A program made the position numbers and the translations under genes. This document shows, piece after piece, positions 9,341-51,639 of a stretch of 64,000 nucleotides of DNA. The stretch covers positions 24,996 to 88,995 of the forward strand of contig JAZDOC010000006.1 in the NCBI GenBank assembly GCA_043798935.1, written 5' to 3'. This stretch comes from Patescibacteria group bacterium. Lineage in GTDB: Bacteria > Patescibacteriota > Patescibacteriia > UBA9570 > JAHJKD01. Within the stretch, counting starts at the first letter, position 1; each line of letters starts with the position of its first letter. The notes below the pieces were generated by a model. That model saw only the letters and a program-made list of their open reading frames with translations. It was not told the DNA's origin and searched no databases.

Positions 9341-9377
9341 AATTTAGCTAATTTTAGCCAAAAAAATAATATGAAGG

Positions 9378-9405
9378 CCCCCAATTAATTGGGGGTGTTT
9401 TTATT
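9378..9405 (+). terminator. rho-independent terminator (CCCCCAATTAATTGGGGG + T-run)
   Basis: 5-bp GC stem, 8-nt loop, followed by TGTTTTTATTGTTTTT. Confidence 0.5.
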
Positions 9406-10752: not shown

Positions 10753-10812
10753 AATTTAATATTAATGATTGCTCTTGCTTATTAATAATGATATACTTAG
10801 AACCATAATTTT

Positions 10813-11235
10813 ATGAAAAAATTAATTCATCAATTTAGCAAATTCGTAATTGTTGGTTTTACAAATACGGCACTTGATTTTTTTTCGTATTTGGCGCTCA
10901 CCAGATTATTTGCTTTCTGCTTTAACCACCCGGTTTTTTCTGCCATGGTATCTTTTTTTATTGCTAATTTAAACAGCTATTTACTAAATAAATATTGGAC
11001 ATTTTCAAACAAAAACAAACAGCATCATGTGCAATACAGTAAATTTTTAATTGTTAGTTTAATCGGTTTGGGTTTAAATTTATTAATTTTTGGCAGTCTA
11101 GTCCACTTGCAAGTTTATGATTTAATAGCCAAGCTTATTCCAGTGCCAATAGTAATGCTCTGGAATTTTATCGCCAATAAAATTTGGACATTTAAAGATA
11201 CTAAAAGCGGGGTAGACAAAATTAGCTCTTTCTAG
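10813..11235 (+). CDS. GtrA-family membrane protein (polyprenyl-phosphate-sugar flippase subunit)
   Basis: 140 aa, 4 TM helices, KFVIVGFTNTALDF ... WNFIANKIWTF typical GtrA signature. Confidence 0.7.
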   Translation: MKKLIHQFSKFVIVGFTNTALDFFSYLALTRLFAFCFNHPVFSAMVSFFIANLNSYLLNKYWTFSNKNKQHHVQYSKFLIVSLIGLGLNLLIFGSLVHLQVYDLIAKLIPVPIVMLWNFIANKIWTFKDTKSGVDKISSF

Positions 11236-11250
11236 TATATTATAAGGGCT

Positions 11251-11982
11251 ATGATTGACGTTTCTATTATCATTCCTGCTTATAATGAAGAGCAGAGAAT
11301 CAGCCAAACTTTACGTGATTATTTGATATATTTCAGCTCTAAAAAAGCTGAAATTATTGTAGTTCTAAATGGTTGCATAGATAATACAATCGATGTTGTA
11401 AAAACATTTCAAACACAATATCCTGATTTATTAAAATATATTGAAATTTCGGAGGCTGTGGGAAAAGGCGGAGCTGTCCAAGCAGGCTTTAAACAAGCCA
11501 AAGGTAATATTATTGGTTTTGTTGACGCCGATGAATCTACTTCGCCGGTTGAATATGATAAATTAATCCATGCTTTACCGGGCAATGACGGCGTTATCGC
11601 TTCTCGCTGGTTAAAAAAATCAATAGTTAAAGAGCGCACCTTGCTTCGTAAAATAACCAGTAAACTTTTCGTTTCATTAGTAAAATTATTTTTTAATTTA
11701 CCGTATCACGATACTCAATGTGGCGCTAAGGTGTTTACTGCGTCAGCCATTAATAAAATTTTACCGCAATTAGAAGTAAAAAATATGGCTTTTGACGTTG
11801 AATTATTAATTGCTTGTCGGGCCAATGATTTAAAAATTAAAGAAGTGCCAACTTTTTGGGTTGATAAAACCAGCTCGGCTTTGCTGGGGTCAAAAATTAA
11901 ATTAATAAAAAGTGCTATACTAATGTTTAAAACATTAATAAAAATAAGAAAAAAAAATTATGGTCAAAAAAGCCATCTTTGA
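11251..11982 (+). CDS. glycosyltransferase family 2, Dpm1/GtrB-like catalytic domain (no C-terminal TM)
   Basis: IIPAYNEEQRI, VDADEST (DxD) and QCGAKVF motifs of polyprenyl-phosphate sugar synthases. Confidence 0.75.
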   Translation: MIDVSIIIPAYNEEQRISQTLRDYLIYFSSKKAEIIVVLNGCIDNTIDVVKTFQTQYPDLLKYIEISEAVGKGGAVQAGFKQAKGNIIGFVDADESTSPVEYDKLIHALPGNDGVIASRWLKKSIVKERTLLRKITSKLFVSLVKLFFNLPYHDTQCGAKVFTASAINKILPQLEVKNMAFDVELLIACRANDLKIKEVPTFWVDKTSSALLGSKIKLIKSAILMFKTLIKIRKKNYGQKSHL

Positions 11983-17629: not shown

Positions 17630-17644
17630 AATTTTAATAATATA

Positions 17645-17673
17645 TTGACAATGCACTCTAATAGCACTACAAT
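17645..17673 (+). promoter_or_regulatory. consensus sigma70 promoter TTGACA-17-TACAAT
   Basis: Perfect -35 hexamer, exact 17-nt spacer, 5/6 -10 hexamer; sits in the only sizeable gap before the sat operon. Confidence 0.6.
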
Positions 17674-17683
17674 AAGAGTGTAT

Positions 17684-17706
17684 TTGATTAACACAAGGTT
17701 AATCAA
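17684..17706 (+). promoter_or_regulatory. perfect 9-bp inverted repeat TTGATTAAC-N5-GTTAATCAA (operator-like) just downstream of the predicted TSS
   Basis: Seen directly in the sequence; lies at about +5 to +27 of the promoter above. Confidence 0.5.
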
Positions 17707-17725
17707 AATATTTAAATAATTAAAG

Positions 17726-17758
17726 TTATGACCCAGCTTGCCTAGGTCAGAATAAAAA
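17726..17758 (+). other. conserved leader motif copy A (TTATGACCCAGCTTGCCTAGGTCAGAATAAAAA), ends 4 nt before the ATG at 17763
   Basis: 31/33 identical to a second copy at 51603-51635 with identical spacing to a start codon. Confidence 0.5.
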
Positions 17759-17762
17759 TTTT

Positions 17763-17987
17763 ATGGCCGAAATTATTATCCCTAATGATTTGAAAGAATC
17801 GTTAGAACAAATTGTAAAAGATTCTAATGAATTTAGCAGTGTTAATGATTATGCTACTTACATTCTTAAACAAGTAGCCGATAAGAAAAAAGCTTCTCAA
17901 ACACAATCTCATCAAGATCAGGCTTATTCTAAAGAAGATGAAGCTAAAATAAAAGAACGACTTCAAAATCTTGGTTATCTAGATTAA
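17763..17987 (+). CDS. small hypothetical protein, possible ribbon-helix-helix (CopG/Arc-like) DNA-binding protein
   Basis: 74 aa; N-terminal beta-strand-like IIIPNDLKESLEQIV followed by helices; first gene after the promoter/palindrome. Confidence 0.35.
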   Translation: MAEIIIPNDLKESLEQIVKDSNEFSSVNDYATYILKQVADKKKASQTQSHQDQAYSKEDEAKIKERLQNLGYLD

Positions 17988-18029
17988 ATTACAAATTGAT
18001 TAAAAATTGAAAAATTAATTATATATATT

Positions 18030-19178
18030 ATGATTCAACCTCATGGAAATGTTTTAATAAACAGAGTGTTAAAACCTGAAGATGCTTTAAAAGCCAAAAT
18101 TAAGGCTGATGGTTTAAAGAAGATTAAAATAGACGAAGAGTTAGTAAAAGAAGTTAAAAATATTGCGCGCGGTGTTTTTTCTCCGCTCGATGGTTTTATG
18201 AATAAAGCTGATTTTGAAAGCGTAGTAGAAAATATGCACTTGGCAAATGGCGTGGTTTGGCCTTTACCGTTTGTTTTAGATATTAACGATCAAGATGCAG
18301 AAAGTATTGCTGTAGGAGATCAAATTGCTTTAATAGATGATAATAACGAACCGATTGCCTTAATGAACGTGGAAGATAAATATAATTTTGACAAAGATAA
18401 TTTTGCTGTCAAAGTTTTTAAAACTAATGAATTAGCCCATCCGGGTGCTAAAATGGTGAGCGAAATGTATGATATATTAATTGGCGGTGAAATTGAATTA
18501 ATAGATAATTCTAAAGAGCCGTTTAATAGTTTCAATTTGGATCCGCTAGAAACCAGAACATTATTTAAAGAGCGCGGATGGAATACTGTCGTAGGTTTTC
18601 AAACCAGAAATGCTCCTCATTTAGCTCATGAATATATTCAGAGGTGTGCGCTCGAAATTTGCGATGGTTTATTTGTTAATCCGGTAATCGGCAAGAAAAA
18701 ATCCGGTGATTTTCAAGACCAGGTAATTTTAGATTCATATCAGGCGTTAATTAATAATTTTTTTCCTAAACAGAGAGTAGTAATGAGTATTTTACCGCTT
18801 AAAATGCGCTATGCCGGTCCGCGGGAAGCAATTTTTCACGCTATCGTACGCAAGAACTTTGGTTGTACTCATTTTATCGTGGGGCGCGATCACGCCGGCG
18901 TTGGTAAATATTACGGCACTTATGAAGCGCAAGAAATTTTCGATACAATCGAAGATTTAGGCATGACGATTTTAAAATTTGAACATTCATTCTATTGTAA
19001 AAAATGCCGGGCATTGGGAACCGCTAAAAATTGTCCGCATACCGACGAAGATCGTATTGGACCTTCAGGAACAATTATCAGAGAAATGATATCTAAAGGC
19101 GAACTGGTGCCAGAAGAAATTATGCGCCCGGAAATTTCTAAGGTTTTAATTGATGCCGATAAGACTTTTGTTGATTAA
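18030..19178 (+). CDS. sat: sulfate adenylyltransferase (ATP sulfurylase)
   Basis: GFQTRNAPHLAHEYIQ and VGRDHAGVG signature motifs; 382 aa homo-oligomeric type. Confidence 0.85.
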   Translation: MIQPHGNVLINRVLKPEDALKAKIKADGLKKIKIDEELVKEVKNIARGVFSPLDGFMNKADFESVVENMHLANGVVWPLPFVLDINDQDAESIAVGDQIALIDDNNEPIALMNVEDKYNFDKDNFAVKVFKTNELAHPGAKMVSEMYDILIGGEIELIDNSKEPFNSFNLDPLETRTLFKERGWNTVVGFQTRNAPHLAHEYIQRCALEICDGLFVNPVIGKKKSGDFQDQVILDSYQALINNFFPKQRVVMSILPLKMRYAGPREAIFHAIVRKNFGCTHFIVGRDHAGVGKYYGTYEAQEIFDTIEDLGMTILKFEHSFYCKKCRALGTAKNCPHTDEDRIGPSGTIIREMISKGELVPEEIMRPEISKVLIDADKTFVD

Positions 19179-19187: not shown

Positions 19188-20183
19188 ATGAATGAATTAG
19201 AGCAATTAAAAAATAATCGAAAAGGATTGATTATCCATCATTGGGATACGGACGGCTTGTGTTCGGCGGCTTTGCTCAAACGTTTTTTTATTGCATTAAA
19301 TTCTAAGATAGCGCTTGATATAATGCCACCGACCATTAATAATTATTTTTTAACGGCTAGAGAATTCACAGAAATTAAACGCGCAAAATATGACTTCATT
19401 ATTACTTGCGATATAAATTTTCCGCCTAAAGTGGTTTTAGAACTCGAGGCCATTAAACCAAAAAAAGTATTTGTTTTTGATCATCATAAGCAAGATCCGA
19501 TTAAAGAAGTGCATTATTATAATCGGCGTTATCCTAGTAACACTTTAGTATTGGCTGAATATCTGGAATTAGATATGGATTTATTAATCAGCTTAGGTGC
19601 TATCGGCGATAAAGAGGAAAAAATAAAACAAGATAAACAATATTGGCCGTTAATAAATAAAGTATTAAATAATAATAATATAAATTTTGAGCAAGTATTA
19701 CAGATTAGAGATTTAGTTGACGCCAGTTACGTTATTAATGATGCAGATTTAATGCGGAAAGTCATTGATGTATTAGCCATTAATCCGTTATTAATCACTA
19801 AAAATGATGAATTGAAAAATTCATTAAATTTAATTCATAGTGAAATTCAAAGTAAAACAGAGCGAACACCAGATGAAATTATTAATGGGGATGTATTATT
19901 ATTTAATATTGAATCTAATTATAATATTTTATCTCAAGCTACCAGAGTTTTAGCTAGAAAATATCTGAATAAAATAATATTAACTTATTCAAAAAAAGGC
20001 GAGCAGACTAATATATACATTCGTCGTCAAGATTTAGATTTAAATTTATCACCACTTATAACTTGGGCCAGATCGCAGAAATTCAATTCCGGCGGAAAAG
20101 AAGAAGTTGTTGGAATAATAATTAATCAGGATTTTTCTAATATTAAATCTGATTTAGTCAATAAAATAAGAGAATTACTATGA
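19188..20183 (+). CDS. DHH-family phosphoesterase, NrnA-like (candidate 3'-phosphoadenosine-5'-phosphate phosphatase)
   Basis: IIHHWDTDGLCSAALL (motif I/II) and VFVFDHHKQD (DHH motif); about 330 aa with DHHA1-like C-terminal half. Confidence 0.65.
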   Translation: MNELEQLKNNRKGLIIHHWDTDGLCSAALLKRFFIALNSKIALDIMPPTINNYFLTAREFTEIKRAKYDFIITCDINFPPKVVLELEAIKPKKVFVFDHHKQDPIKEVHYYNRRYPSNTLVLAEYLELDMDLLISLGAIGDKEEKIKQDKQYWPLINKVLNNNNINFEQVLQIRDLVDASYVINDADLMRKVIDVLAINPLLITKNDELKNSLNLIHSEIQSKTERTPDEIINGDVLLFNIESNYNILSQATRVLARKYLNKIILTYSKKGEQTNIYIRRQDLDLNLSPLITWARSQKFNSGGKEEVVGIIINQDFSNIKSDLVNKIRELL

Positions 20184-21565
20184 GCCAAAAAAAATTATTT
20201 GTTTTGGGGCTTGATTGTGCCACGCCGCAATTTTTATTTGACGAGTATTTAGATGATTTGCCGACATTTAAAAAATTATTTTCTCAAGGAGCCTATGGTA
20301 AATTGCGAAGCACTATTCCGGCTATTACGGTTCCGGCTTGGATGAGCATGATGACAAGCCAAACCCCGGGAGATTTAGGAATCTATGGATTTCGTGGGCG
20401 GCGGGCCGGCTCGGGGTATAACGACATGTTTATTGCCAGTGCTGAGCATGTTCAATATAAAAAAGTTTGGGATTATCTAAACATGGCTGGATTAAAAACC
20501 GGCATGCTAAGCGTGCCGTTAACCTATCCGCCGCAGACCGTGGATGGATTTATGGTAAGCGGTTTTATGACGCCATCGCTGGAAAGTGAATTTACTTATC
20601 CCAAAGAATTAAAACAAGAAATTGCCGATGTGGTAGGCGAATATATTTTTGATTTTGCAAATCGTTCAACCGAAGCTCCGGAAAAGATTTTGGAAAAAAT
20701 TTATGAGATGACCGATAAACGACATAAATTAATCAAGTATTTTATCAAAAACAAGCAGTGGGATTTTTTAATGATGGTAGAAATGGGCGTGGATCGGATT
20801 CATCATTACATGTGGAGCTATGTGGATCCAAAGCATCCTAAATTTCAGGGAGAAAATAATAAATTTAAAAACAGCATTAAAGAATATTATCAGCATATTG
20901 ACCGGCAGCTAAGTGAAATTTTAGATTTATTACCGAAAGAGTGTAGTGTTATGATAGTGTCTGATCACGGCGCTAAGGCCATGGATGGTATGTTTTTAAT
21001 TAATGAATGGCTAATTAAAGAAGGGTATTTAGTATTAAAAAATTATCCAACTAGCGTCACTCGGCTGGAAAAATGTGATATCGACTGGTCTAAAACCAAA
21101 GCTTGGGCTTGGGGCGGTTTTTATTCCCGCATTTTTATTAATGTTAAAAGACGCGATCCGGAAGGTATCGTGGAAGATTTTGAAACAGAGCGAGATTCAT
21201 TAGCCCGAAAATTAAAAGCCATAACCGATGATCACGGTAATAAATTAATAAACATTGTCGCACCGGCTAATGAATTATACAATGATCCCCAAGGCGATGT
21301 ACCGGATTTATTGGGATTTTTTGGAGATTTATCTTGGCGACCAGGCGGTACCGTCGGGCATAATAAAATTTATATTCATGAAAACGATACTGGCCCTGAT
21401 GATGGTGTGCACGATTGGAACGGAATATATGCTTTTTGGCAGCCCGAGAAAACCGGAAGCGGGTTATTGCCGGAGTCGAGTATTTTAGATATTGCGCCAA
21501 CTATTCTAAATTATTTTGGAGTGGATATCCCAAAAGATTTTAAGGGAAAAATAATTAATTACTAA
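20180..21565 (+). CDS. alkaline-phosphatase-superfamily protein, nucleotide pyrophosphatase/phosphodiesterase (PF01663-like)
   Basis: LFVLGLDCATPQF N-terminal metal/nucleophile motif, MIVSDHGA motif; paralog of 25914-27518. Confidence 0.6.
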   Translation: MSQKKLFVLGLDCATPQFLFDEYLDDLPTFKKLFSQGAYGKLRSTIPAITVPAWMSMMTSQTPGDLGIYGFRGRRAGSGYNDMFIASAEHVQYKKVWDYLNMAGLKTGMLSVPLTYPPQTVDGFMVSGFMTPSLESEFTYPKELKQEIADVVGEYIFDFANRSTEAPEKILEKIYEMTDKRHKLIKYFIKNKQWDFLMMVEMGVDRIHHYMWSYVDPKHPKFQGENNKFKNSIKEYYQHIDRQLSEILDLLPKECSVMIVSDHGAKAMDGMFLINEWLIKEGYLVLKNYPTSVTRLEKCDIDWSKTKAWAWGGFYSRIFINVKRRDPEGIVEDFETERDSLARKLKAITDDHGNKLINIVAPANELYNDPQGDVPDLLGFFGDLSWRPGGTVGHNKIYIHENDTGPDDGVHDWNGIYAFWQPEKTGSGLLPESSILDIAPTILNYFGVDIPKDFKGKIINY

Positions 21566-21571: not shown

Positions 21572-22177
21572 ATGACCGAACAAAAAGCAACAAACATCAC
21601 TTGGCATGATGGCGAAATTAATAAAAAAGAGCGTGAGCAGTTATTAAAACAAAAAGGAGTAATTTTGTGGTTTACGGGTCTTTCCGGATCTGGAAAGTCT
21701 ACTGTAGCTGTAGCTTTAGAAAAGAAGCTGTTTGAAATGGGTCACATTAATTACCGTTTAGACGGCGATAATATTCGCCATGGCCTCAATAAAGATTTAG
21801 GCTTTTCACCAGAAGATAGAGTAGAAAATATTCGTCGTATTGGTGAAGTATCAAAATTATTTGCCGATGCTGGCGATATTGTTTCGACATCATTTATTTC
21901 GCCGTATCTTAAAGATCGTGAGATTGTGCGTGATTTAGTTCCAGCCGGAGAGTTTATAGAAGTTTATGTAAAATGTTCGCTGGCTGAATGCGAAAAGCGC
22001 GATCCTAAAGGATTATACAAAAAAGCCCGCGCCGGAGAATTAAAGCAGTTTACAGGCATAGACGCGCCTTATGAAGAGCCAATTAACCCTGAAATGGTGG
22101 TAGAAACCGACAAACAGGCTGTAGAGCAAGTGGTGGATAAAATATTAGCTTATTTAAAAGAAAAAGGCATAATTTAA
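21572..22177 (+). CDS. cysC: adenylyl-sulfate kinase (APS kinase)
   Basis: P-loop [13 protein letters not shown], 201 aa, typical CysC length and motifs. Confidence 0.9.
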
Positions 22178-22259: not shown

Positions 22260-24017
22260 ATGTTAAAATCGTTACAACGTTTCTGGATAATTACAATTGT
22301 TATCTGTCTAATTTTAGGCGCATTTTTTTCATATATTTATTTTCAGGATCATGCTTGGGGTACCTGGGGAGACGATAGCGCCGGATACATTTATTTGTGG
22401 GGCAAAATGGATCAAAATAAAGATTTAGTTTATCAAGAGCCTTTAACCGTAGCGGCGCTTAAATTTTTTGGTAATGAAAAATTAGCACGCTGGACCACGC
22501 CGACTCATCATGAAATCATCTCGCCGTCGGGGTATGTCGCATCCAAATATCCGATAGGCCTTTCACAAATAATGCTATTGTTTTCTCGGCTCTTTCAAGA
22601 CGATAAGGCTATTTATTATGTCTTGCCATTACTAGCAACAATAAATTTAATTCTTGTATATTTAATATCACTAATATTTTTTAAAGACATTAAATACAAA
22701 CACTTTTTTAGTTTGTTGCCGGCCTTTATGCTGGGCCTGGCTAGCTTGTATTATAATTATGCTATTTCTCAGCCCATGCGGGAAATTCCGTCTATGTTTT
22801 TCTTATTGGCTGGTTATTTATTTTTATTGCTGGCAGTTGAATATTATGGTTCACAAAATCAAAAGAAAGATAAAATATTTTTTTATACTTTAATAATATT
22901 AGCATCATTATTTGCCGGCTATAGCTTAAACGTTAGAGAAACCAGTATCATGATTTTGCCGGCTTTTTTAATAATGTTGTTTAGTATATCTAATAGAAAT
23001 GCTGAGCCCCAAGAAAAAAATAAAAACATTAAGTTTAAAATTAAATTAGCATTATTAGCTTTATTAATGTTAATTATCGCTTATATACCGTCTTTTATTA
23101 ATTCGGCTGATATTACCCAATTTAAAGAAAAATTCAGAGCTAAAGATATCACGTCTATTGCCATTACTTCAAATTTTGATCATATCAGTTCATTTAGCTT
23201 GCAAAATGTTTTTAATAACCAGGGAAAATTCAGGCCCGGGCGCGGTGCTTTACCGCATTATTGGGGCGTAATGAATGATAATTTAGCTGTCTGGCCATGT
23301 TTTATTGTTCTAGCAATAATAGGACTATATTCTATTTATAAAAAAAATAAATGGCTATCGGCCAGTTTACTACTATGGATTCTGGGTGTATTAATAATTT
23401 TTTCTTTATGGATAAACCCTTATTCCAGATATATTTTGCCACTGTTTCCAATATTAGCCATTTGCGGAAGTTATGGATTGTATGCAGTGTGTTTTAAAAT
23501 TGTACCACATTTTTTCAAGAATAAACGCCTACAGTTTTTAGTTTGTTTAATAATATTATTATCTTTAATTATTTCATATCTACCGGCAATAATCGATATT
23601 AAAACTAATTTTAATGAAAATGAAGACGGCGAAGAAAAGTTGGTGTTTAAAGCAATCTCTGAAAATGATTTATTTAGTTTAAAGGGTTTAGGAGAAAAAA
23701 TTTATACTGATAATAAAACTGATAAACCGCCATTAGTGGTTTTTAGCGGTACTTGGCAATACGGAATTTCTGAAACTTTTGAAGCCCATACTGGAATTCA
23801 AGGTATCCACATGCCACTTGAAGACAAGAAAAATGTTTTCGATAAAGAACAGGTAAAAGATTTTTTTACCCAAGAAGTGTTTCCAAATTATAATGTATAT
23901 TTTTGGATAGACGCGACCAGTAAATCAAACAGCGTTGATTTTATTAATTATTTTAAAGTACAACCTAAATATTCTTATTCATTAACATTTGCTAACCCCA
24001 CTATTTATGGAAATTAA
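22260..24017 (+). CDS. multi-pass membrane protein, putative GT-C glycosyltransferase (ArnT/PMT-like)
   Basis: 585 aa, about 10 N-terminal TM helices with early acidic loop motif (WGDDSAGY), large C-terminal extracytoplasmic domain. Confidence 0.4.
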   Translation: MLKSLQRFWIITIVICLILGAFFSYIYFQDHAWGTWGDDSAGYIYLWGKMDQNKDLVYQEPLTVAALKFFGNEKLARWTTPTHHEIISPSGYVASKYPIGLSQIMLLFSRLFQDDKAIYYVLPLLATINLILVYLISLIFFKDIKYKHFFSLLPAFMLGLASLYYNYAISQPMREIPSMFFLLAGYLFLLLAVEYYGSQNQKKDKIFFYTLIILASLFAGYSLNVRETSIMILPAFLIMLFSISNRNAEPQEKNKNIKFKIKLALLALLMLIIAYIPSFINSADITQFKEKFRAKDITSIAITSNFDHISSFSLQNVFNNQGKFRPGRGALPHYWGVMNDNLAVWPCFIVLAIIGLYSIYKKNKWLSASLLLWILGVLIIFSLWINPYSRYILPLFPILAICGSYGLYAVCFKIVPHFFKNKRLQFLVCLIILLSLIISYLPAIIDIKTNFNENEDGEEKLVFKAISENDLFSLKGLGEKIYTDNKTDKPPLVVFSGTWQYGISETFEAHTGIQGIHMPLEDKKNVFDKEQVKDFFTQEVFPNYNVYFWIDATSKSNSVDFINYFKVQPKYSYSLTFANPTIYGN

Positions 24018-24678
24018 TAAAATCAGCGATATTAAAAAATATCAAAAAGCGCACGATAGTATTTTTTCCAAACTAATTACCCGTAAAATTTCAGTTATTT
24101 TTAGCTTTTATTTAATTAAGCGTTGGAAGCAGGTAACACCTAATAAAGTTTCGCTAATTTCTTTTATTACAGCCGTGGTAGCTATCGGATTATTTCTGGC
24201 TGATAATTATTTTGTTCGATTACTCGGCGTAGTTTTTTTACAAATTTCTTTTGCCTTAGATTGCTCTGATGGAGAAATTGCTAGAATTAAAGAAATGAGT
24301 TCTAAATTCGGCGCTTGGATGGATAGTGTTTTAGACAGGTTTAAAGAAGTAATGATGTTTGGAGCATTAACTTTTATTGTTTATAATTATGCCTGGGATA
24401 CGTCTGCTTTATTAATCGGATCTTTGGCAATAATTTTATGGCTATTAGTGGGATTTTTAAGAGAAGCAAAAAAGTCTTCCTGGCCGGAAAAGCGCACAGC
24501 GGAATTATATATTACTGATAACATATATATCGGTACCGTAGATACTACTATTTATTTTGTATGCTTTGCCATAATAATCCACATGGAATTGATGGCGTTA
24601 TGGGTTTTTGCAATTTTGGGATTAATACTACTAGTGAAACAAATTATTAGTGCTTGGCAGCTGGAGAAAAAGATTTAA
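23989..24678 (+). CDS. CDP-alcohol phosphatidyltransferase family protein
   Basis: D-x2-DG-x2-AR-x7/8-G-x3-D-x3-D signature: DCSDGEIARIKEMSSKFGAWMDSVLDRFKE; 6 TM helices. Confidence 0.7.
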   Translation: MLTPLFMEINKISDIKKYQKAHDSIFSKLITRKISVIFSFYLIKRWKQVTPNKVSLISFITAVVAIGLFLADNYFVRLLGVVFLQISFALDCSDGEIARIKEMSSKFGAWMDSVLDRFKEVMMFGALTFIVYNYAWDTSALLIGSLAIILWLLVGFLREAKKSSWPEKRTAELYITDNIYIGTVDTTIYFVCFAIIIHMELMALWVFAILGLILLVKQIISAWQLEKKI

Positions 24679-25966
24679 AATATTTTGTCTGCATAAACAG
24701 CAGAATTATAAAGAGAATAGATAAAGCGATAGTTGAAACTCTGGTTAATATAAAATTACTATTCGGAATGAAATTGTAAAATTCTGTCGAAATGAAAATA
24801 ACAACACTAATAATACTTAAATAAACTTTTTTTTCTTTTAAAAAATAATAGATTAACCATATTAGAATTGGTACGGTCCAAAATAAATATTGAGCATGAA
24901 CACTTTTATTGAACAATAGAAAAAAAGTCATCATCAGAGCATAATCATTTAAATATTGTTGCCCAGAAAGAGTAACTCTTTTTTTATACATTAAGTATAA
25001 AATTGTTGTAAAGAAAAAAATTGTTGATAAAAGAAATAAATCATCAAAAGTTGATATTAAAGTTTGATTGGGCAATGATAAAAAGGGCAAATAATTTTTT
25101 TTAATTGCGACTCGAACAAGGCTATATAAAGAAACTCCTGATGTTAGATCGTTTATGCCATTAACAAAATATTCCCAAAAAACATTTTTCCAGAAATAAT
25201 AAATGCCATTTATTTTAAAATACGGAACAGTCGCGATCACTAATAATATTGATGAAAAAACATAAGATGTCAGGGCACGCCATTGTTTTTTAATAATAAA
25301 ATATGGAACGAAAATAACCGGAAATATTTTTAAGGCTGTTGCTATAGCCAAGATACTGCCAGCCATAATCGGTTTTTTTTTATAAAGAGCAATAAAAGTG
25401 GTGATTAATAAAAATAATATCACCCCATTAATTTGGCCGGTTCCCATTAAGCTGTTAATTGGTGCGGCAAAACATAATAGAAGCAATGAAATGGAAAAAA
25501 GCGGATGGAATAATTTTTTTCGATCAATTAAAAAATAGATACCGGCATAATAAGTAATAATAAATAGCAGTGAATTAAACTAGAGCCAATAGTGAACTAA
25601 TATTTTAAATTTAAAATGCGAAAAAAATAAAAAGAAAAGCGCTGCTTGCGGTGGATATAAAAATTTTGTTCCGCCGCTATCGAATACTTTTCTAACTTCC
25701 GGTCTAAAAAACGGACGATTATAGATGTCGACGGCGGTTAAAGGAGTTAATATACCGGTTAATACTTTTGATGATGTATAATAAACGCACATATCGCTCC
25801 GACCATAGCCTTTGTTATTAAGATAAACACCGTTGTAATAAAGAAAAAAAATAATCGCTATTATAAACAGAACAATACAAAATATCTTATAAAATTTTAA
25901 TAAATTATATTTGTTAAAATTTAATGTCATTGATAAGATTATTAATCGCTTGTTTTTCAGTTTCAA
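24647..25966 (-). pseudogene. GT87/DUF2029-like GT-C membrane glycosyltransferase interrupted by one in-frame TAG (codon at 25580-25582)
   Basis: ORFs 25580..25966 and 24647..25486 are in the same frame; manual translation shows no other stop between them (amber then FNSLLFIITYYAGIYFLIDRKKLFHPFFSISLLLCFAAP...); N-terminal part has the YPPqAAlFF motif typical of DUF2029. Confidence 0.4.
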
Positions 25967-27518
25967 ATATTATTTCTTTTTGTTCCTTAAAAATTTCGGT
26001 TATTACTTTGCCGTCCATGTCGCGCGGGATAGGAATATTTAATAAATGTAATATAGTAGGTGCAAGGTCGGTAATATTATTGTCTTCTAACTCTGTATTT
26101 GATTTAATATTTGGTCCTAGAGCCAAGAAAATACCGTCCATATCATGGTGGTATTTATTACTGTCCTGATTATCATTAAAAATTTTACCTGAATAGAAAT
26201 TACCGTCTAGCCAGTAATTTTTTAAATCGAAAAATAAATCAGGCGCATCTATGGGGGCATTTTTTCCGTAAACATCTTCTTTGGTTAATATTTTTTCGAT
26301 AACTTTTTCTCCTGAAGCATCAGTAAGTTTTTCTAACTTTTGTTTAATTTCGGTTCTGATTTTTAAATATTCTTTTTCGGTTTTAATTATACCGTCGTGA
26401 TATTTTTTTTGATAATTTAGATATACATTAGTAATATGACCGCCTTTTGGGATACAAGCATAAGTTTTGCTGTAGTCAACTCCAATGTTAACTTTTAAAT
26501 TGATCGGTAGATATTTTTTAATGAATTTTTTATACAGCCAAAAACTAAATTTTTCTAACCAGGGAAAGTACGATAAAATTTTAAAAGCGCTTTTTCCTAA
26601 ATTAATTGCCTTGTATTTTGATTGTGTTTTAGTTGCTTCACGTCCGCGACGAGTGACACGGGTTTTAAATTGTTCTGAACCAATTTTAGAAGTGAGATAT
26701 CCTTCTTTTTCTAACCATTTATTGATATAGAAAATTTTGTGAAAAGAAGTGAATCCATGATCGCTCATCATAAGTAAAGTTGTATCAGGAGGCAAGTTTT
26801 CTAAAAACCATCCTAAATAACCATCGATTATTTTATATATTTCTAATGATTTTGGATCGCGATCATTAACAACTTCATCAAAACGAGCGTGCTGAAGCCA
26901 ATCGGTAGCGGAAAAAAGATAAAAGAAAAAATCCCATTTTTTTGTAGTAAATATTTTTTTAACAGCTGCTAAATGATCGTGTTCCATTTGACCGATTTCT
27001 TCAATGTATGCTTCTTGTCTTTCTTTCATGCGCAAAGATTCATTAGGAGTGAGTTTGTATTTTTTTAGTTCTGGAAATTCTTCAATTAATGAATTTGGCC
27101 AAATCCATTGGTCGCCTTGTGTAAGCAAAGAAGTAATAACAATGTGTTTATCTTTTAATCGTGGTGGCCAGGAATTAGGCAGGTTAATTGTAATGGGTTC
27201 TAATCCTTGTTCGGAAATAATTTCGTAAACTGTTTTGCCTTTTATATCACGGGAAGATGTGATACGAAAATCAGTTAGACTGCCATTAGATAATAAAAAA
27301 TCATAAACACCATGCTTGCCGGGTGTTTTACCGGTAGCGAAAGTAGTCCAGGCAGTACCGGTCATGGGTGGAATCGTGGATTTTAAAATTCCATGACTGC
27401 TTAATTCTAATATTTTTTTAAAATTAGGCATTACGCCTTCTTCAGCCAGCGGTTTTAAAATTTTATATGTTCCGCCATCGAGGCCGATTACAACAACTTT
27501 ATTGTTTGCTTGTGTCAT
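25914..27518 (-). CDS. alkaline-phosphatase-superfamily protein, nucleotide pyrophosphatase/phosphodiesterase (PF01663-like), paralog 2
   Basis: VVVIGLDGGTYKIL and MMSDHGF motifs; alignable with 20180-21565 (LKSTIP..T..AW....T..TPG..G.Y.F). Confidence 0.6.
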   Translation of the reverse strand: MTQANNKVVVIGLDGGTYKILKPLAEEGVMPNFKKILELSSHGILKSTIPPMTGTAWTTFATGKTPGKHGVYDFLLSNGSLTDFRITSSRDIKGKTVYEIISEQGLEPITINLPNSWPPRLKDKHIVITSLLTQGDQWIWPNSLIEEFPELKKYKLTPNESLRMKERQEAYIEEIGQMEHDHLAAVKKIFTTKKWDFFFYLFSATDWLQHARFDEVVNDRDPKSLEIYKIIDGYLGWFLENLPPDTTLLMMSDHGFTSFHKIFYINKWLEKEGYLTSKIGSEQFKTRVTRRGREATKTQSKYKAINLGKSAFKILSYFPWLEKFSFWLYKKFIKKYLPINLKVNIGVDYSKTYACIPKGGHITNVYLNYQKKYHDGIIKTEKEYLKIRTEIKQKLEKLTDASGEKVIEKILTKEDVYGKNAPIDAPDLFFDLKNYWLDGNFYSGKIFNDNQDSNKYHHDMDGIFLALGPNIKSNTELEDNNITDLAPTILHLLNIPIPRDMDGKVITEIFKEQKEIIFETEKQAINNLINDIKF

Positions 27519-28203
27519 ATTGCTTGAATTGTTTATAATTTAGATAAATAGAAAAACAAGTATAAATAAATTGAATGATTGCATACATTACTAGTAATAA
27601 AGAAACTTGGTTAAGCAGTGCAAATATAATTATTAAACCATAACGATCCGCTTCTTTAAATAGCAGAGTGTGTTTAAGCGATCGAATGAATTGGCAAGGA
27701 ATTTTTTTAATAATAACTTTTTCAGATATTTGAGCTTTATATTTTAATTCGAAAGATTCGCGCCAATAACGCGACATGTTTCTTAAATATTGGAAACTCA
27801 GTGCAAAAAAAGCGAAGACATAAACTAAGCATTCGTGATTAATTTGATAGGCACCCCAGGCTAATCCAAAAAGAATAAGTACATCTTTAATTTTATCAGT
27901 ATAATGATCATACCATTCTCCTAATTTAGATTGTTTGCTAATCAAGCGCGCTAGTTGCCCATCTACACAATCAAATATTAAAGTTATTAGTAATAATAAA
28001 GAACCCACAATCAATTGATTATTAGCAAATAGCCAGGCAGTAATAATACCGGAAATAAATGAGATAGTTGTGAAAAAGTTAGGTGATAACCATTTTATTT
28101 TAGTAGCCATTTTGGCAATCAAAAAAGATATTTGACCAGCAAAATAATATGTTAGCAAACTATCTTCTTTCTTTATGACGTCGCGCGGGTTGTTATAGCT
28201 CAT
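27499..28203 (-). CDS. CDP-alcohol phosphatidyltransferase family protein, paralog 2
   Basis: DCVDGQLARLISKQSKLGEWYDHYTDKIKD signature; 6 TM helices. Confidence 0.7.
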   Translation of the reverse strand: MSYNNPRDVIKKEDSLLTYYFAGQISFLIAKMATKIKWLSPNFFTTISFISGIITAWLFANNQLIVGSLLLLITLIFDCVDGQLARLISKQSKLGEWYDHYTDKIKDVLILFGLAWGAYQINHECLVYVFAFFALSFQYLRNMSRYWRESFELKYKAQISEKVIIKKIPCQFIRSLKHTLLFKEADRYGLIIIFALLNQVSLLLVMYAIIQFIYTCFSIYLNYKQFKQYDTSKQ

Positions 28204-29245
28204 TTAATAACTGATTAATATTAAAATCATCCAAATTTAATTTTTCTAGAATTGTATATCTATCAGGGCGGGTTTGAGGGGCGAATTTCAGCACTTCTAT
28301 CATTTGGCTATGAGTAAGGTTGATATCTTGATAATGAGTTGGTAGGCTAAGGTTTTTAAATAATTTTTTGTAATTATTATAATAAGCACTATTTCTTAAT
28401 TTTTCGGTAATAATTATTCCTAAAGCTACTTGTTCGCCATGCATGGCCGTGTTTGGAAATAGTTTGTCAATGGCGTGGGAGATTTTATGCTCTGCACCAG
28501 AACAGGGGCGAGAGTTTCCGGAAATATGCATAGCTATACCGCTTAATACTAAGCCGTTAATTAAAGTGAGTAAAAATTTATCTGAGTATATATTAATGTT
28601 ATAATCATCATCGACATTGCCGTAAATTAAATCTGCGGCCGAATAAGCAAGCGACATGGCGAAATCATCAATTTTTTCTTGTTTTTCCATGTGGGCTAGT
28701 TTCCAGTCGGCTAGTGCTGAAAAATTTGATAATAAATCACCTGTGCCAGCTTGAATATTTTTAAGCGGTGCTTTTTTTATTATATCTAAATCCACAATAA
28801 TGCCTGTTGGCATATTAACGCCCATGCTTTGTTTTAAATTATTACCGTCTGTTAAGACTGCAATTGGCGAAGCGATACCGTCGTGCGATGGAGAAGTCGG
28901 TACAGAAATATAATTTACATTAGCCTTAGTGGCAGCGTATTTTCCTACATCCAGAACTTGGCCTCCGCCAATAGCGATTATGGCATCGTGGGCATTAGTT
29001 AGAATTTGATCTTTAATTTTTTCCGCCGCCGTAATAGAACTGTCATTACTAATTAAAATATTTTGAGGTTGACATAATGAATTTAAATTTATATTTTCCA
29101 AATTTTTAACGGTTTTACTAATAAGTATTAAAGGGTTATTAGCAATTAAATTTTCTTCAATTAAAATATTTTTAATATCATTAATAATATTTTTTTCAAT
29201 TTTGATAAATAAGGGAACTTGTGTATCGCGGAAATTTACCGACAT
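28193..29245 (-). CDS. glycerol-1-phosphate dehydrogenase [NAD(P)+]-like (AraM/EgsA family, Fe-ADH/DHQS-like fold)
   Basis: GGGQVLDVGKYAA glycine-rich NAD motif, SVPTSPSHDGIASP (G1PDH-type substrate/metal motif), GAEHKISHAIDKL His pair; 350 aa. Confidence 0.55.
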   Translation of the reverse strand: MSVNFRDTQVPLFIKIEKNIINDIKNILIEENLIANNPLILISKTVKNLENINLNSLCQPQNILISNDSSITAAEKIKDQILTNAHDAIIAIGGGQVLDVGKYAATKANVNYISVPTSPSHDGIASPIAVLTDGNNLKQSMGVNMPTGIIVDLDIIKKAPLKNIQAGTGDLLSNFSALADWKLAHMEKQEKIDDFAMSLAYSAADLIYGNVDDDYNINIYSDKFLLTLINGLVLSGIAMHISGNSRPCSGAEHKISHAIDKLFPNTAMHGEQVALGIIITEKLRNSAYYNNYKKLFKNLSLPTHYQDINLTHSQMIEVLKFAPQTRPDRYTILEKLNLDDFNINQLLNEL

Positions 29246-29249
29246 ATGT

Positions 29250-29984
29250 TTACGGAATTATTTGTTGAATTAATTGTTTGGCGTTTTTTAAGTCTTCATG
29301 AGTATCAATTTCCATGGCCGGTAGGCCCGAAGTGGAAATTTTATAAATTGGAGCATCTTGATCAATAAAATGCTGTAAAGCATCTTCATAATATAAGCTC
29401 GGATCATTTTGCATCACAGTTTCTAAGCTATTAATTAACGCTTGTTTAAATTCACTGCCTAATTTCATGAGGCCAATATATTCGCCGTTAGCTATTTCAG
29501 GTTTTAAAGTTTTGTGAATTTTGTGAATTTTATTATCTTTATCGATGTAAACTTTCATTTCCTCATCAGATAATTTTTTAAAATCATCGATGGCCATAAC
29601 ATTTTTTTGCGGATGATCGAGTAGCGCTTGCAGAATATTTTTGTGAAAAATAGTGTCAGAATTAATAATAATAAAATCGTTAGAAAAAATTGGTTTAGCA
29701 GAGTAAAGAGAATGGATATTACCTTTGCTGTTATATTCGTTATTATAAATTATTTCAATAGAAACATCGGGATTGTTTTTTTTATATTTTTCTGAAAAAG
29801 CTACCACATGTTCATGGCCATGCCCGGTTAATAAGCTAAATTTTTTCAGACCACAAGCTTGGCAGGTATCTAAAATATGGTGCAAAATTTCTTTATCACT
29901 AATTTTAAGTAAGCTTTTTGGATGTTTATCAGTGAGAGGTCGAAGGCGTTTAGATTCGCCGGCAGTTAAAATTAAAACTTGCAT
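29250..29984 (-). CDS. sugar/alcohol-phosphate nucleotidyltransferase (NTP_transferase family)
   Basis: N-terminal LILTAGESKRLRPLTDKHPKSLL (G-x-G-x-R-L motif), 244 aa. Confidence 0.6.
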   Translation of the reverse strand: MQVLILTAGESKRLRPLTDKHPKSLLKISDKEILHHILDTCQACGLKKFSLLTGHGHEHVVAFSEKYKKNNPDVSIEIIYNNEYNSKGNIHSLYSAKPIFSNDFIIINSDTIFHKNILQALLDHPQKNVMAIDDFKKLSDEEMKVYIDKDNKIHKIHKTLKPEIANGEYIGLMKLGSEFKQALINSLETVMQNDPSLYYEDALQHFIDQDAPIYKISTSGLPAMEIDTHEDLKNAKQLIQQIIP

Positions 29985-30000
29985 AATAATTTTGGTAGTA

Positions 30001-31488
30001 TTAATTGTTTATAGCATCAGATTCAGGATTGCTTGACGCATTCTTTTGAAATTTATTAGGAATTAATTGTTTAAATAATGCCATGTCGTAAGCGTCGAGA
30101 AACTTAAAAACCCATAAAAAGAAGCCGTAAATTAAGGCTCCTAATAATATAGTAAATATAACATTTAACTTGTCCATTGTAAAATAGATTACCGTGCCCA
30201 TAATAATGCTCGCCAGAACGGGTTTAATGAGTTTGAGTAGATAAGAGAAAACGTTTAATTTAAGATAATAAAGATCAGTAATAGTGAAAGCGATTCTGAT
30301 AATAAATTCAGTAGCGACAGTACCAATAACAGCGCCCATGAAGCCATATGCATTAATTAGAAAATAATTAATAATTATTAAAAAAATAAATGAAAAAATT
30401 TGGATAATATTTTCCTGTTTTTGTTTATCAATGGCGGTTAAAGATTGCCCGGAAACATTACCGGCAAAGCGAGCGATTAAAAACAGCGCAAAATATTTTA
30501 GGGCAAGGGCCGCTGGGGCATAACCGGGCTTACTGTAGATTAAATGAATAATAGGGTCGGCCAATAAAAAAGTGCCGATTACTATTGGAATACTTAAAGC
30601 ATTTAAATATCGAAAAATTAAAAGGTGAATTCGCTTATACTTGTTAATGTCTAAAGTACTGTACTTAAACATTAATGGTAAAGCAATTTGAAAAATCATT
30701 TGTGGCAGAATTAGAATTAAAATAATTAATTTAGCCGCCGCTGAATAAAGACCAGCCTCGGTATTGCCTTTAAAATACTGCAACATCAATATACTGATTT
30801 GAAAATAAGCAATTAGAAATATATCGTAAATGGAATATTTAAGGCCGTCTTTAACCATGGGCCATAAAAGTTTTAAATTGAATGTTGGTTTCACAAGTTT
30901 TAAGTCGTAAAGGAATACCGATAGTATAAATAACAGATTCATAATCAGCGGCGCCCCGGCTATCAAAATAATACCGAAATTTCGGTCATTAATAATATAG
31001 CTAATAGCTAAAGTTAAAATGAAGATACAAAAACCCGTAATGACTTCAAAAATTGAAACCACTTTCATTTTTAGCATAATACGTAAAACAGCTCGAAATG
31101 ATTTTCTAAATTCAAAGAAAACAGTTGCCAAACCTAAGAGTACTACCAAAATCATGGTTTGCGAGTCGTAGTGCAACACTACGGCCATCACAATTGTTAT
31201 AATAAAGAAAAAAGTCGAAGCAATGGATTGAATAATAATAGAATTTCCGAAATAAAGGCTGATTGAATCTTTATGGCGTGATCCTTCGCGCATTAGGAGA
31301 GTGGTAGAGCCAATATCGTTGGCTACTAGAAAGGTATTGGTTAAGGCGAGGGCTGTAGAATACATACCGAATTTTTCCACGCCAGCATAACGCGCGATAA
31401 TAATTGCAACCAGAGCATTAAAAATGCGATATAAAACACGAGCGATTAAAACCGCAAAAGCGTTATTGAATAATTTGCGAAACATCAT
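30001..31488 (-). CDS. polysaccharide flippase, MOP/Wzx family
   Basis: 495 aa, about 14 TM helices. Confidence 0.6.
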   Translation of the reverse strand: MMFRKLFNNAFAVLIARVLYRIFNALVAIIIARYAGVEKFGMYSTALALTNTFLVANDIGSTTLLMREGSRHKDSISLYFGNSIIIQSIASTFFFIITIVMAVVLHYDSQTMILVVLLGLATVFFEFRKSFRAVLRIMLKMKVVSIFEVITGFCIFILTLAISYIINDRNFGIILIAGAPLIMNLLFILSVFLYDLKLVKPTFNLKLLWPMVKDGLKYSIYDIFLIAYFQISILMLQYFKGNTEAGLYSAAAKLIILILILPQMIFQIALPLMFKYSTLDINKYKRIHLLIFRYLNALSIPIVIGTFLLADPIIHLIYSKPGYAPAALALKYFALFLIARFAGNVSGQSLTAIDKQKQENIIQIFSFIFLIIINYFLINAYGFMGAVIGTVATEFIIRIAFTITDLYYLKLNVFSYLLKLIKPVLASIIMGTVIYFTMDKLNVIFTILLGALIYGFFLWVFKFLDAYDMALFKQLIPNKFQKNASSNPESDAINN

Positions 31489-32372
31489 AAGTTAATTTGT
31501 TTTTTACACACGGCCGATAATAATCCGTATTTAATAGCCAGAATATTTAATAATTTAAAGAATTTATAATTAATAAATATTTTTGCCGGCCAACGACAAA
31601 CTGTTAATCCGAGCTTACAAATAATCCGTAAACATTGAGCAGGAAAATTATTTTGATGGGCTAATAAATGTGGAAAATATTTTTTGATAAAGCTTGGATT
31701 ATGAAGAGAAGTGATTAAAAAATTATTATAATTTTGTTTGATGCGTTTTTTTATAATTACATCTAAACAAATTTCATTAACGTGATTAATAATAACATTT
31801 TCGGAAAAGATAATTGTTTTATTATGCTCGTGTAAGAGCGCACCGAATTCCATATCGCCGCCGTACTGAAGCCGGCTATTAAAACCATTAAGTTTTTCAA
31901 AGACGTGTTTTTTAATAGCAAAATTTCTAGTATCAATGCGGCTTAATGTTTTATTATTATTGTTTAGAAAATCATGGGTAATTTGTTCATAAAATTTTTG
32001 TTCAAACTCGGCAATATTATTTTTATTTATACCTAATATTTTACCCATAAGGCTGTCTACATTTTGATCGAATGTTTTATCAATCTCTTTTAACCAATTG
32101 CTAGTCACTTGGCAGTCTGAATCAATAAAAATTAATATCTCACCACCAGCGTTATTAGCACCGGTGTTTCTAGCTTGATAGGATCCTGTTATTGGTTCAT
32201 GGACGTATTTAACCAAGTATTTATCAGCAAAATAGCGTAATTGCTTTTCGTGATTATTATCTACTAAAATTACTTCAAAATCAGAAATTGGATAATCTAA
32301 ATTTTGAATTGATTTTAAGCAATCATTAAGATATTTTGAAGATGAACAGGGGATAATAATTGAATATTTCAT
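31485..32372 (-). CDS. glycosyltransferase family 2
   Basis: SIIIPCSSSKYLNDCLKSI and DSDC (DxD-type) motifs. Confidence 0.7.
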   Translation of the reverse strand: MKYSIIIPCSSSKYLNDCLKSIQNLDYPISDFEVILVDNNHEKQLRYFADKYLVKYVHEPITGSYQARNTGANNAGGEILIFIDSDCQVTSNWLKEIDKTFDQNVDSLMGKILGINKNNIAEFEQKFYEQITHDFLNNNNKTLSRIDTRNFAIKKHVFEKLNGFNSRLQYGGDMEFGALLHEHNKTIIFSENVIINHVNEICLDVIIKKRIKQNYNNFLITSLHNPSFIKKYFPHLLAHQNNFPAQCLRIICKLGLTVCRWPAKIFINYKFFKLLNILAIKYGLLSAVCKKQINL

Positions 32373-34878: not shown

Positions 34879-36426
34879 TTGGCTATTATATCAAGCTTGA
34901 TTTATTTTGGCAATTTATTTATAATAATGAAGATGAAAATAGAGAAAATTACGAAAATTTGGTCAATTTTTTTATTTGTGGCGATTGTGGCTCTTTTTTT
35001 GTTTTTACTTAATAATTACTTTGTTTTTAACGGAAAATTAACAATTTCATACGATTTTTGCTCGCCAGCAACACTCATTACTGAATTTACGCCTACTGGC
35101 CGAGCCTTAGCCATTGAAAAAAACCTAAAAACGGGGGAATGTTATCAGAGAATCGTCGGAGAGCCGGTTTATTTCACTTCTTATGTACCCCGTTCGTTTG
35201 ATACGGCGGAGGTGGCTATAAATTATCAAAACCCCAGCCAAAGCATTTTAGAGCTTGGTGTGCAAAAATCCATTGATTGGAATTTCGAGTTAAAGCCTTT
35301 GGAAAATAAATTTATCGATAATTCGACTTGGGATAGAATAAACACTGATAATATAATTTTTTTACAAAAACAAAAAAAATATAATAGCTATCAGGAATTT
35401 TTAGATAATGTTCCGACTGATAAAAAAATAGCTACTTATAATTATAGTTTGCCGTATAAATTTGTGATCGACGATTATGAGCCAAGCGACAAACAGCTTG
35501 AAATTAATACGGCACTGCGAGGCCGGCATGAATTTTATACTTATTTAGGCAAAGGCGAAGATCTTGATTTTACTTTCTATTGGCAAGATATTAACTGGGC
35601 GCTGAGCGCGGATAATTTTATAGTGCGTATTTACAAAGATGACACTGAAATTCAAACCGAAGTCGAGCCCGGAGACGGCAATACCGATATTAGTGGCACG
35701 GCTTCACTGGTTAAAGAGAAACAAATAAAACTAACTAATTTAAGCGGTGGGTTATTCCGGATAGTAGTTGATGTTAGTAATGATGTTTTTATTCGAAAAA
35801 TTATCACTAAGCAACATTTGCTAGTAGTAAAAAACAGAATTTTTTTAGCTGACAGCGAGGCCCATAAAAATAGCATTTCAGATTTAACTCTGGATCCTAC
35901 CACGTTATATACTAACAGTGATATTTTATTAGCGCGTACTGATCATTCGGAAAGTTTGCAAAGCATAAGCATTAACAACGACAAATTAGAACTTATTCGC
36001 ACCGGTGAAGATTTTAAATGGAGTGATGATAATAATTTAGGTTCCATAAAAATTATTAACGCTGTTTTAAATGATGTATACATTCAAGGATTTGGCTATT
36101 ATTCTTTTACGCCCGAAAGTTTTTTTGATCCCGACTATGGCATAGATATTTTGCGCACCGACATGAATATGGATAATTACGATTATTTAATTGCCAAAGA
36201 TTATTCTGCCCCGACAGCTGTTCGCAGTTGGAACGCGGCTACGCAAAGTTTTGTTTTAGACACGGTACCGGGCGACAGAAAAACATTAAATTTTATTCTG
36301 TCCGCACCCGGAATCACCGATATTAATAGCCAGATTATAGTTAAAAATATTGAAATTAAATTTAAAAAAGATCCATTAAATTTAAAAAATTTATGGCCGC
36401 GGCTAAAGTTTAAATTAGGCTTATGA
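34879..36426 (+). CDS. hypothetical exported protein with an N-terminal TM anchor (true start possibly the MKMKIEK methionine)
   Basis: 515 aa; one N-terminal hydrophobic helix then a large hydrophilic domain; no recognisable motif. Confidence 0.35.
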   Translation: MAIISSLIYFGNLFIIMKMKIEKITKIWSIFLFVAIVALFLFLLNNYFVFNGKLTISYDFCSPATLITEFTPTGRALAIEKNLKTGECYQRIVGEPVYFTSYVPRSFDTAEVAINYQNPSQSILELGVQKSIDWNFELKPLENKFIDNSTWDRINTDNIIFLQKQKKYNSYQEFLDNVPTDKKIATYNYSLPYKFVIDDYEPSDKQLEINTALRGRHEFYTYLGKGEDLDFTFYWQDINWALSADNFIVRIYKDDTEIQTEVEPGDGNTDISGTASLVKEKQIKLTNLSGGLFRIVVDVSNDVFIRKIITKQHLLVVKNRIFLADSEAHKNSISDLTLDPTTLYTNSDILLARTDHSESLQSISINNDKLELIRTGEDFKWSDDNNLGSIKIINAVLNDVYIQGFGYYSFTPESFFDPDYGIDILRTDMNMDNYDYLIAKDYSAPTAVRSWNAATQSFVLDTVPGDRKTLNFILSAPGITDINSQIIVKNIEIKFKKDPLNLKNLWPRLKFKLGL

Positions 36427-51552: not shown

Positions 51553-51602
51553 TTAAATGATTTAGACAAGCTAAATCATAACATTAGTATGAATATAAAA
51601 TG

Positions 51603-51635
51603 TTATGACACAGCTTGCCTTGGTCAGAATAAAAA
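51603..51635 (+). other. conserved leader motif copy B (TTATGACACAGCTTGCCTTGGTCAGAATAAAAA), ends 4 nt before the ATG at 51640
   Basis: 31/33 identical to copy A at 17726-17758. Confidence 0.5.
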
Positions 51636-51639
51636 AAAT

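Follow-up and report, generated by a model that had tools for sequence, protein, structure and literature searches.

One gene for a membrane glycosyltransferase of family GT87 is interrupted by an in-frame amber codon in a 64,000-nucleotide stretch of DNA from a Patescibacteria group bacterium (GenBank assembly GCA_043798935.1, contig JAZDOC010000006.1, forward-strand positions 24,996 to 88,995). This whole stretch is called the window below and is numbered from its first letter. The interrupted frame is very probably one broken gene, rather than two genes or a case of recoding, and the evidence leans towards a real and very recent nonsense allele within an accessory island of surface-glycan genes. 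Disruption of a GT87-family gene by a single codon in a metagenome-assembled genome (MAG) is an ordinary event. The main rival explanation, and a serious one, is an error in the consensus or the choice of a minority allele.

A single reading frame with one internal stop

The minus strand between 24647 and 25966 translates as a single open frame whose sole internal stop is the TAG at 25582-25580, and the downstream open reading frame (ORF) ends in a TAA at 24649-24647. A preliminary description of the region, made from the sequence alone, had placed two ORFs in one frame with nothing but the amber codon at 25580-25582 between them, and translation bears this out. The same description read the gap between the two ORFs as continuous coding sequence, which is correct apart from one slip: in the segment given as HPFFSIS, a CTT codon for Leu had been rendered as F. 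From the TAG to a TTG at 25486 there are 31 codons, reading FNSLLFIITYYAGIYFLIDRKKLFHPLFSIS. The YPPxAALFF-type motif that had been pointed out is present as YPPQAALFF at amino acids (aa) 92-100 of the joined protein.

The gene likely starts at the ATG at 25930, since the N-termini of homologs agree with this position and 50 of the 58 window genes start with ATG. Counted from there, the product would have 427 aa, not the roughly 440 first estimated, and the TAG is codon 117 of 427; an alternative start at TTG 25966 would give 439 codons. The window has a G+C content of 32%, a composition at which random sequence holds about one stop per 13 codons, and the 310 codons that stay open 3' of the TAG are therefore not a product of chance. 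There are no N bases or repeats near the site.

Family membership and homologs

The joined product had been described as a GT87/DUF2029-like enzyme of the GT-C type, encoded by one gene that a single amber codon divides. Both parts of this description stand, the first on a Pfam match, a structural model and a likeness to the mycobacterial enzyme PimE, and the second on a single Pfam stretch that runs across the TAG and on 42 uninterrupted homologs. A single stretch of the joined protein, aa 90-338, aligns with profile positions 1-233 of 237 of Pfam GT87 (PF09594) and spans codon 117 (E 1.5e-24; 87.5 bits, with a cut-off of 25). The C-terminal piece by itself scores 69 bits against PF09594, and the N-terminal piece by itself has no match to this profile.

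A word-indexed protein search returned the C-terminal piece as an identical 307-aa entry (P0001, 100%; 'MAG: glycosyltransferase family 87 protein [Patescibacteria group bacterium]' at NCBI), together with three proteins (419-437 aa) that are 34-36% identical and span about 90% of the query. These three nearest proteins are collinear with the joined sequence and carry F, W and W at the TAG column. An exhaustive profile search over 1.84 billion representatives found 9,687 family members, of which 46 reach E <= 1e-30; with few exceptions, they are 400-440 aa long and were matched in one stretch.

Residue counts given here come from an alignment of 43 sequences, made up of 42 homologs and the window protein. 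Not one of the 42 has a stop or a gene boundary at the TAG column, and all are uninterrupted. Relative to every one of them the stop is premature, and it falls within the conserved domain, as would be expected of a pseudogene. The column itself is a variable hydrophobic position (V 11, L 8, W 5, I 5, A 4, F 2, M 2, G 2, T 2, Y 1), and Leu (TTG), Trp (TGG) and Tyr (TAY), each a single substitution away from TAG, all occur there. Comparison of homologs at this codon, which the preliminary description had proposed, thus gave W and Y among the residues and no stop, but the nearest relatives are only 34-41% identical, several lie in another genomic context, and true orthologs were not found.

Several GT87-like proteins of other Patescibacteria (P0002; P0003, 'Candidatus Microgenomatus auricola'; P0004; and Kerfeldbacteria loci L003 and L004) illustrate the relationship. 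They are 419-437 aa long, 34-41% identical to the window protein and collinear over about 90% of the protein, and they share its GGTxFLYPPQAA, TGQING, KIFP and HAQY motifs; unlike the window gene, they are uninterrupted. Several of the Patescibacteria homologs adjoin genes for prolyl-tRNA synthetase (ProRS) and an SLT transglycosylase, whereas the window gene lies in a glycan island. The homologs could therefore be paralogs rather than orthologs, and the window copy may on the same grounds be an accessory paralog. A convergent ProRS gene adjoins the GT87 homolog at the loci L002 (1208-3937), L005 (5-2827) and L006 (1598-4462), and the SLT transglycosylase gene comes next in L002 and L005.

Broken copies of the family are not rare in public metagenome data. 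Three homologs from other assemblies (P0062, P0042 and P0095) end early, with frameshift-like tails that depart from the family consensus. A recurrent natural split of the family was considered and rejected: the 293-aa P0010 is cut by the end of its contig, and P0062 and P0042 have the tails just mentioned.

Predicted structure and the active site

An AlphaFold2 model of the joined protein, built with the homolog alignment, is a single compact membrane protein made up wholly of helices (mean pLDDT 94.6, pTM 0.93) with a GT-C(A)-type multi-helix fold resembling that of PimE. Two helices of this model are separated by a short break, and codon 117 falls there. When the predicted structure was compared with solved ones by Foldseek, the best match was mycobacterial PimE (9dm5/9dm7; E 1.6e-5, TM-score 0.64/0.70), and the next matches in the PDB were GPI mannosyltransferase I (GPI-MT-I), ALG3 and ALG6. 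All four are of the GT-C type and have polyprenyl- or dolichyl-phosphate sugars as donors.

PimE, a GT87 enzyme of mycobacteria, is an alpha-1,2-mannosyltransferase that depends on polyprenyl-phosphate-mannose. It falls in the same Pfam family, PF09594, as the window protein, and the family profile detects its sequence at E 1.3e-22, although the identity between the two proteins is only about 15%. In this alignment Y92 corresponds to PimE Y92, and K201, the lysine of a shared K-x-F/T-P motif, corresponds to PimE K195; the W319-T-H321-H322 motif of PimE is replaced by H-A-Q-Y. D58, on the first juxtamembrane helix of PimE, is the catalytic base, and activity is abolished by mutation of D58, Y62, Y92, K195 or W319 (PMC12041525). 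The window protein has an invariant Asp, D46, in a similar place, the first loop directly after the first transmembrane segment (TM1) and the start of the modelled helix 45-57. We infer from this position and from its invariance that D46 is the counterpart of D58; alignments with the PimE sequence begin only at about residue 85-89.

Conservation is high at all the residues of interest: D46 in 42/42 sequences, Y92 and K201 in 43/43, Q166 in 42/43, N168 in 41/43 and H345 in 35/43. D46 and Y92 are encoded 5' of the TAG, and Q166, N168, K201 and H345 are encoded 3' of it. Neither fragment thus has a complete active site, and by analogy with PimE neither should be active alone. Of 32 columns that are highly conserved in the family, 27 are matched by the window protein, at the low end of the family range of 23-32, and every presumed catalytic residue is among those kept. 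Judged by its sequence, it is divergent, not decayed. The donor, again by analogy, would be a polyprenyl-phosphate sugar. The mycobacterial host of PimE makes phosphatidylinositol mannosides, which Patescibacteria lack, so the acceptor and the sugar used here may differ from those of PimE. A further difference is that the window gene is interrupted.

A probable recent nonsense allele or a possible base error

The history favoured here begins with one base substitution that would have created a premature stop at codon 117, most simply from TGG (Trp) or TTG (Leu). Because the closest relatives carry W or F at this column, the change of TGG to TAG, a G-to-A transition, would be the simplest. Changes of this kind (GC to AT) are the expected mutational direction in a genome of 32% GC. 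Translation would then end at codon 117 and release a 116-aa fragment with the presumed catalytic D46 and Y92 and without the region of donor-phosphate-binding Q166, K201 and H345, and any product started downstream would lack D46. With both products incomplete, the allele would be null or strongly hypomorphic. The event may be dated as very recent because a second lesion is absent.

Loss of the enzyme would probably be tolerated, given an accessory gene, a place at the end of its operon and several other putative GT-C enzymes in the island. The GT87 gene is the last cistron, and its stop is therefore without polar effect. Accessory glycan genes are commonly lost, and this counts in favour of a nonsense allele. 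Before the loss, the encoded protein would have been a PimE-like enzyme that takes its sugar from a polyprenyl-phosphate donor and works on the membrane's outer face. Young nonsense null alleles in the surface-polysaccharide loci of other bacteria look much the same: an accessory glycosyltransferase gene is intact but for one premature stop, and annotation splits it into two coding sequences (CDSs); the difference is that the substitution here is known from a MAG consensus.

Several observations weigh against this history. No close ortholog was found that could reveal the ancestral codon. Exact-protein look-ups with the 307-aa and 70-aa pieces and with the product of the upstream alkaline-phosphatase-family gene led to no other contig, and in cluster look-ups these three proteins appear once each, all from one NCBI contig of 102,189 bp. 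A scan of JGI metagenomes, with patterns that the window itself satisfies, found no second copy, and a scan of GTDB representatives gave only four distant loci, none of them from the source genome. The sequence is a MAG consensus, from which the presence of the substitution in cells has to be argued; the lack of any additional decay would be expected just as well of an error or of a functional gene; and the loss of activity is projected from PimE mutagenesis across about 15% identity.

Many of the same observations would fit an intact gene with Trp, Leu or Tyr at codon 117, in which the stop stems from sequencing, polishing or consensus calling or from a minority allele chosen by the assembler. 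This is a possibility to be taken seriously, if not the one we expect. The TAG is the sole lesion in an otherwise perfect 1.28-kb frame, the conserved catalytic residues are all kept, and the source is a MAG; the frameshift-tailed family members in other metagenome assemblies, such as P0062 and P0042, are artefacts of a sort common there. That said, substitution errors in a consensus are rarer than indel errors, the site has neither N bases nor repeats around it, and no indel damage is seen. The window holds 66 A/T homopolymers of at least 8 nt, four of them inside the GT87 gene, and none causes a frameshift; the other genes, about 60, are intact as well. The accuracy of the consensus with respect to indels therefore looks high. 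The preliminary description had offered a nonsense mutation, a base error and programmed readthrough without choosing among them. The first two are the ones that the present evidence favours, and the third found no support.

A split enzyme?

A nonsense allele, as favoured above, would be inactive or nearly so, but the fragments of a GT-C enzyme might in principle work together. Translation would stop at the TAG and re-initiate at CTG 25570, at TTG 25486 or at a later ATG, and the two products would assemble non-covalently into an active enzyme. In the model the TAG coincides with a short turn that joins two helices, and split membrane proteins sometimes reassemble when cut in such turns. The gene is also free of further decay. 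A missing ribosome-binding site is no argument against restart, as the organism seems to initiate translation without Shine-Dalgarno (SD) pairing: an SD-like motif lies within 25 nt upstream of only 2 of the 58 called genes, and the upstream regions are A/T-rich. Such a functional split is nonetheless improbable. The 42 aligned homologs are all undivided at this point, and the short family members that were examined are cut by a contig end (P0010) or have frameshift-like tails. The first in-frame ATG is about 45 codons downstream and would remove a helix, and CTG starts are rare. Nor does the sequence point to an internal promoter, with 13 promoter-like sites found against 11.8 expected by chance, or to a terminator.

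Is TAG decoded?

The full-length enzyme could also be made if UAG were decoded, by programmed readthrough, a suppressor tRNA-CUA or pyrrolysine insertion. Two things speak for this, and nothing else does: the frame is intact to either side of the TAG, and TAG is rare as a stop (three real gene ends among about 60 genes). Among the roughly 61 window genes, about 51 end in TAA, 7 in TGA and 3 in TAG, the internal TAG of the GT87 gene not included. The TAG at 9338-9340 is a real stop; after it come a GC-rich hairpin and a T-run (9377-9396) that together resemble a terminator. A complete GtrA domain ends at the TAG at 11233-11235, and 15 nt further on is the ATG of a GT2 gene whose product matches its Kerfeldbacteria homolog from residue 1. 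These two codons had been cited earlier as ordinary stops that make genome-wide recoding unlikely, and both statements are upheld, as TAG interrupts one of about 61 genes and ends three in the normal way. The GtrA/GT2 pair (10801-11982, plus strand), which is in frame across its TAG, was considered as a second TAG-split gene and rejected, since it comprises two complete and different Pfam families and the GT2 gene has its own ATG.

Across about 20,000 codons, every other window gene is free of in-frame TAG and TGA, and the coding density under translation table 11 is 97%. The 64-kb window contains no tRNA genes, hence no suppressor tRNA, and no Pyl-related families; it has no match to an Rfam family either. 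An RNA structure that could stimulate readthrough is not apparent, as the folding of a 141-nt segment at and downstream of the TAG is poorer than that of shuffled sequence (z +1.7). The base that follows the stop is U, and not the C that makes a stop context leaky in E. coli. As an unusual or methylation-linked motif, CTAG does not stand out (77 observed, 80 expected). No homolog has a stop at this column. At the time of a 2021 screen of 250,000 genomes, all known bacterial stop-codon reassignments were of UGA, not UAG (PMC8629427). Genome-wide recoding of TAG is excluded for the window, site-specific readthrough has no support, and decoding of this UAG is very unlikely. Taken more broadly, a UAG that is decoded or bypassed, either for a low, tuned level of full-length enzyme through readthrough or suppressor tRNA-CUA or through two reassembling GT-C fragments, is a decidedly improbable outcome.

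Phase variation and the public annotation

Phase-variable surface glycosylation, with the stop as a reversible ON/OFF switch, had been raised in the preliminary description and does not fit the site. The gene does lie inside a surface-glycan island, and strain-level ON/OFF variation is common at surface-glycan loci. However, the sequence around the TAG is non-repetitive (TATTGGCTCTAGTTTAATTC), with no simple-sequence or inverted repeat and no invertible element at or near it; the four homopolymers within the gene are all in frame; and a nonsense point mutation, which goes back no faster than ordinary mutation allows, makes no switch. This explanation is most unlikely.

That the locus holds two truly separate genes, one for the 70-aa hypothetical protein and one for the 307-aa GT87 protein annotated in GenBank, is almost certainly wrong: the shorter CDS begins with an internal Met that lies past TM1 and the invariant D46, the longer one needs a CTG start, and both are collinear with single proteins in all homologs and with one Pfam domain. 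The presence of a start codon and a ribosome-binding site had been proposed as a mark of separate genes, but it is uninformative in a genome where SD-like motifs are so scarce. Both GenBank CDSs are artefacts of gene calling over an interrupted frame. The longer, MFH0818660.1, carries Q166, N168, K201 and H345 and is without D46 and Y92.

Genomic setting

The window is chromosomal, with genes for L9, L27, CTP synthase, a MurA-like protein and PilM/N at 55-64 kb. Most of it forms a surface-glycan island, in which numerous GT4 and GT2 genes occur together with genes for three Wzx-type flippases, for Rml, Glf and UDP-glucose dehydrogenase and for several large multi-TM proteins. The GT87 gene closes an operon on the minus strand in the order GT2, flippase, nucleotidyltransferase, Fe-ADH_2, CDP-alcohol phosphatidyltransferase, alkaline-phosphatase-family protein and GT87. 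The features discussed here are collected in Table 1.

Table 1. Positions of the interrupted GT87 gene, its parts and related features in the window
Feature	Position	Strand	Remarks
GT87-family GT-C glycosyltransferase frame	24647..25930	-	427 codons including the internal TAG, plus TAA stop; identified by Pfam, homologs and AlphaFold2
Premature TAG, codon 117	25580..25582	-	Between predicted helices 108-115 and 119-135
N-terminal fragment, 116 aa	25583..25930	-	TM1, first loop with invariant D46, YPPQAALFF segment (Y92)
MFH0818661.1, 'hypothetical protein V1898_01570', 70 aa	25580..25792	-	Internal ATG (M47) to TAG; P0063 is identical to residues 47-116
MFH0818660.1, 'glycosyltransferase family 87 protein', 307 aa	24647..25570	-	CTG start four codons after TAG
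Alkaline-phosphatase/type I phosphodiesterase family gene, MFH0818662.1	25914..27518	-	Upstream, same operon; end overlaps GT87 ATG by 17 nt
Rest of operon: CDP-alcohol phosphatidyltransferase, Fe-ADH_2 (glycerol-1-phosphate-dehydrogenase-like), nucleotidyltransferase, Wzx-type flippase, GT2	27499..32372	-	
CDP-alcohol phosphatidyltransferase gene	23989..24678	+	Convergent; 3' end overlaps GT87 3' end by 32 nt
GtrA-like and GT2 genes	10813..11982	+	Candidate polyprenyl-phosphate-sugar synthase supplying the GT-C donor
Sulfation-module genes	3345-4259 (-), 18030-19178 (+), 19188-20183 (+), 21572-22177 (+)		
Putative polyol-phosphate-type genes	27499-29984 (-), 23989-24678 (+), 20180-21565 (+), 25914-27518 (-)		

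The GtrA and GT2 pair is the likely donor synthase for the GT87 enzyme; its GT2 protein is 48% identical to the GT2 encoded directly upstream of the GT87 homolog in the Kerfeldbacteria locus L004. Around the GT87 gene are Fe-ADH_2 and nucleotidyltransferase genes, two CDP-alcohol phosphatidyltransferase genes and two paralogous genes of the alkaline-phosphatase/phosphodiesterase family, a set that looks like a pathway for polyol-phosphate (teichoic-acid-like) decoration.

Elsewhere in the island there is a complete sulfation module, with ATP sulfurylase, APS kinase, a sulfotransferase and a DHH-family phosphoesterase that may be a PAP phosphatase, and its place among glycan genes suggests that this Patescibacteria genome encodes sulfated surface glycans. 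Three large proteins of 585, 515 and 746 aa (22260-24017, plus; 34879-36426, plus; 44460-46700, minus) have no Pfam family, and the first of them is visibly multi-TM; they could represent unrecognised families of additional GT-C enzymes or of polymerases. An RmlC-like cupin (51589-52101, plus) matches dTDP_sugar_isom at E 1.3e-23 and, overlapping with this, the membrane-domain family Polysacc_synt_C at E 1.3e-12; the second match is probably a quirk of the Pfam model, because the cupin sequence is not hydrophobic. The longest non-coding gap of the window, 400 nt at 17630-18029, contains no Rfam family and no tRNA.

Meaning for annotation and biology

The value of the finding lies in curation, and beyond that it has little importance. 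MFH0818661.1 and MFH0818660.1 are to be merged and flagged as a pseudogene or a possible sequencing error; as a family member the 307-aa entry misleads, because the presumed catalytic Asp is missing from it. Wider interest would arise only under the unlikely readings of readthrough or a split enzyme, which, if true, would be the first UAG decoding in Patescibacteria or the first naturally split GT-C enzyme. If the stop is real, as a recent nonsense allele would have it, the gene would be a small example of the strain-level loss of one step of surface-glycan synthesis in an episymbiotic-type bacterium.

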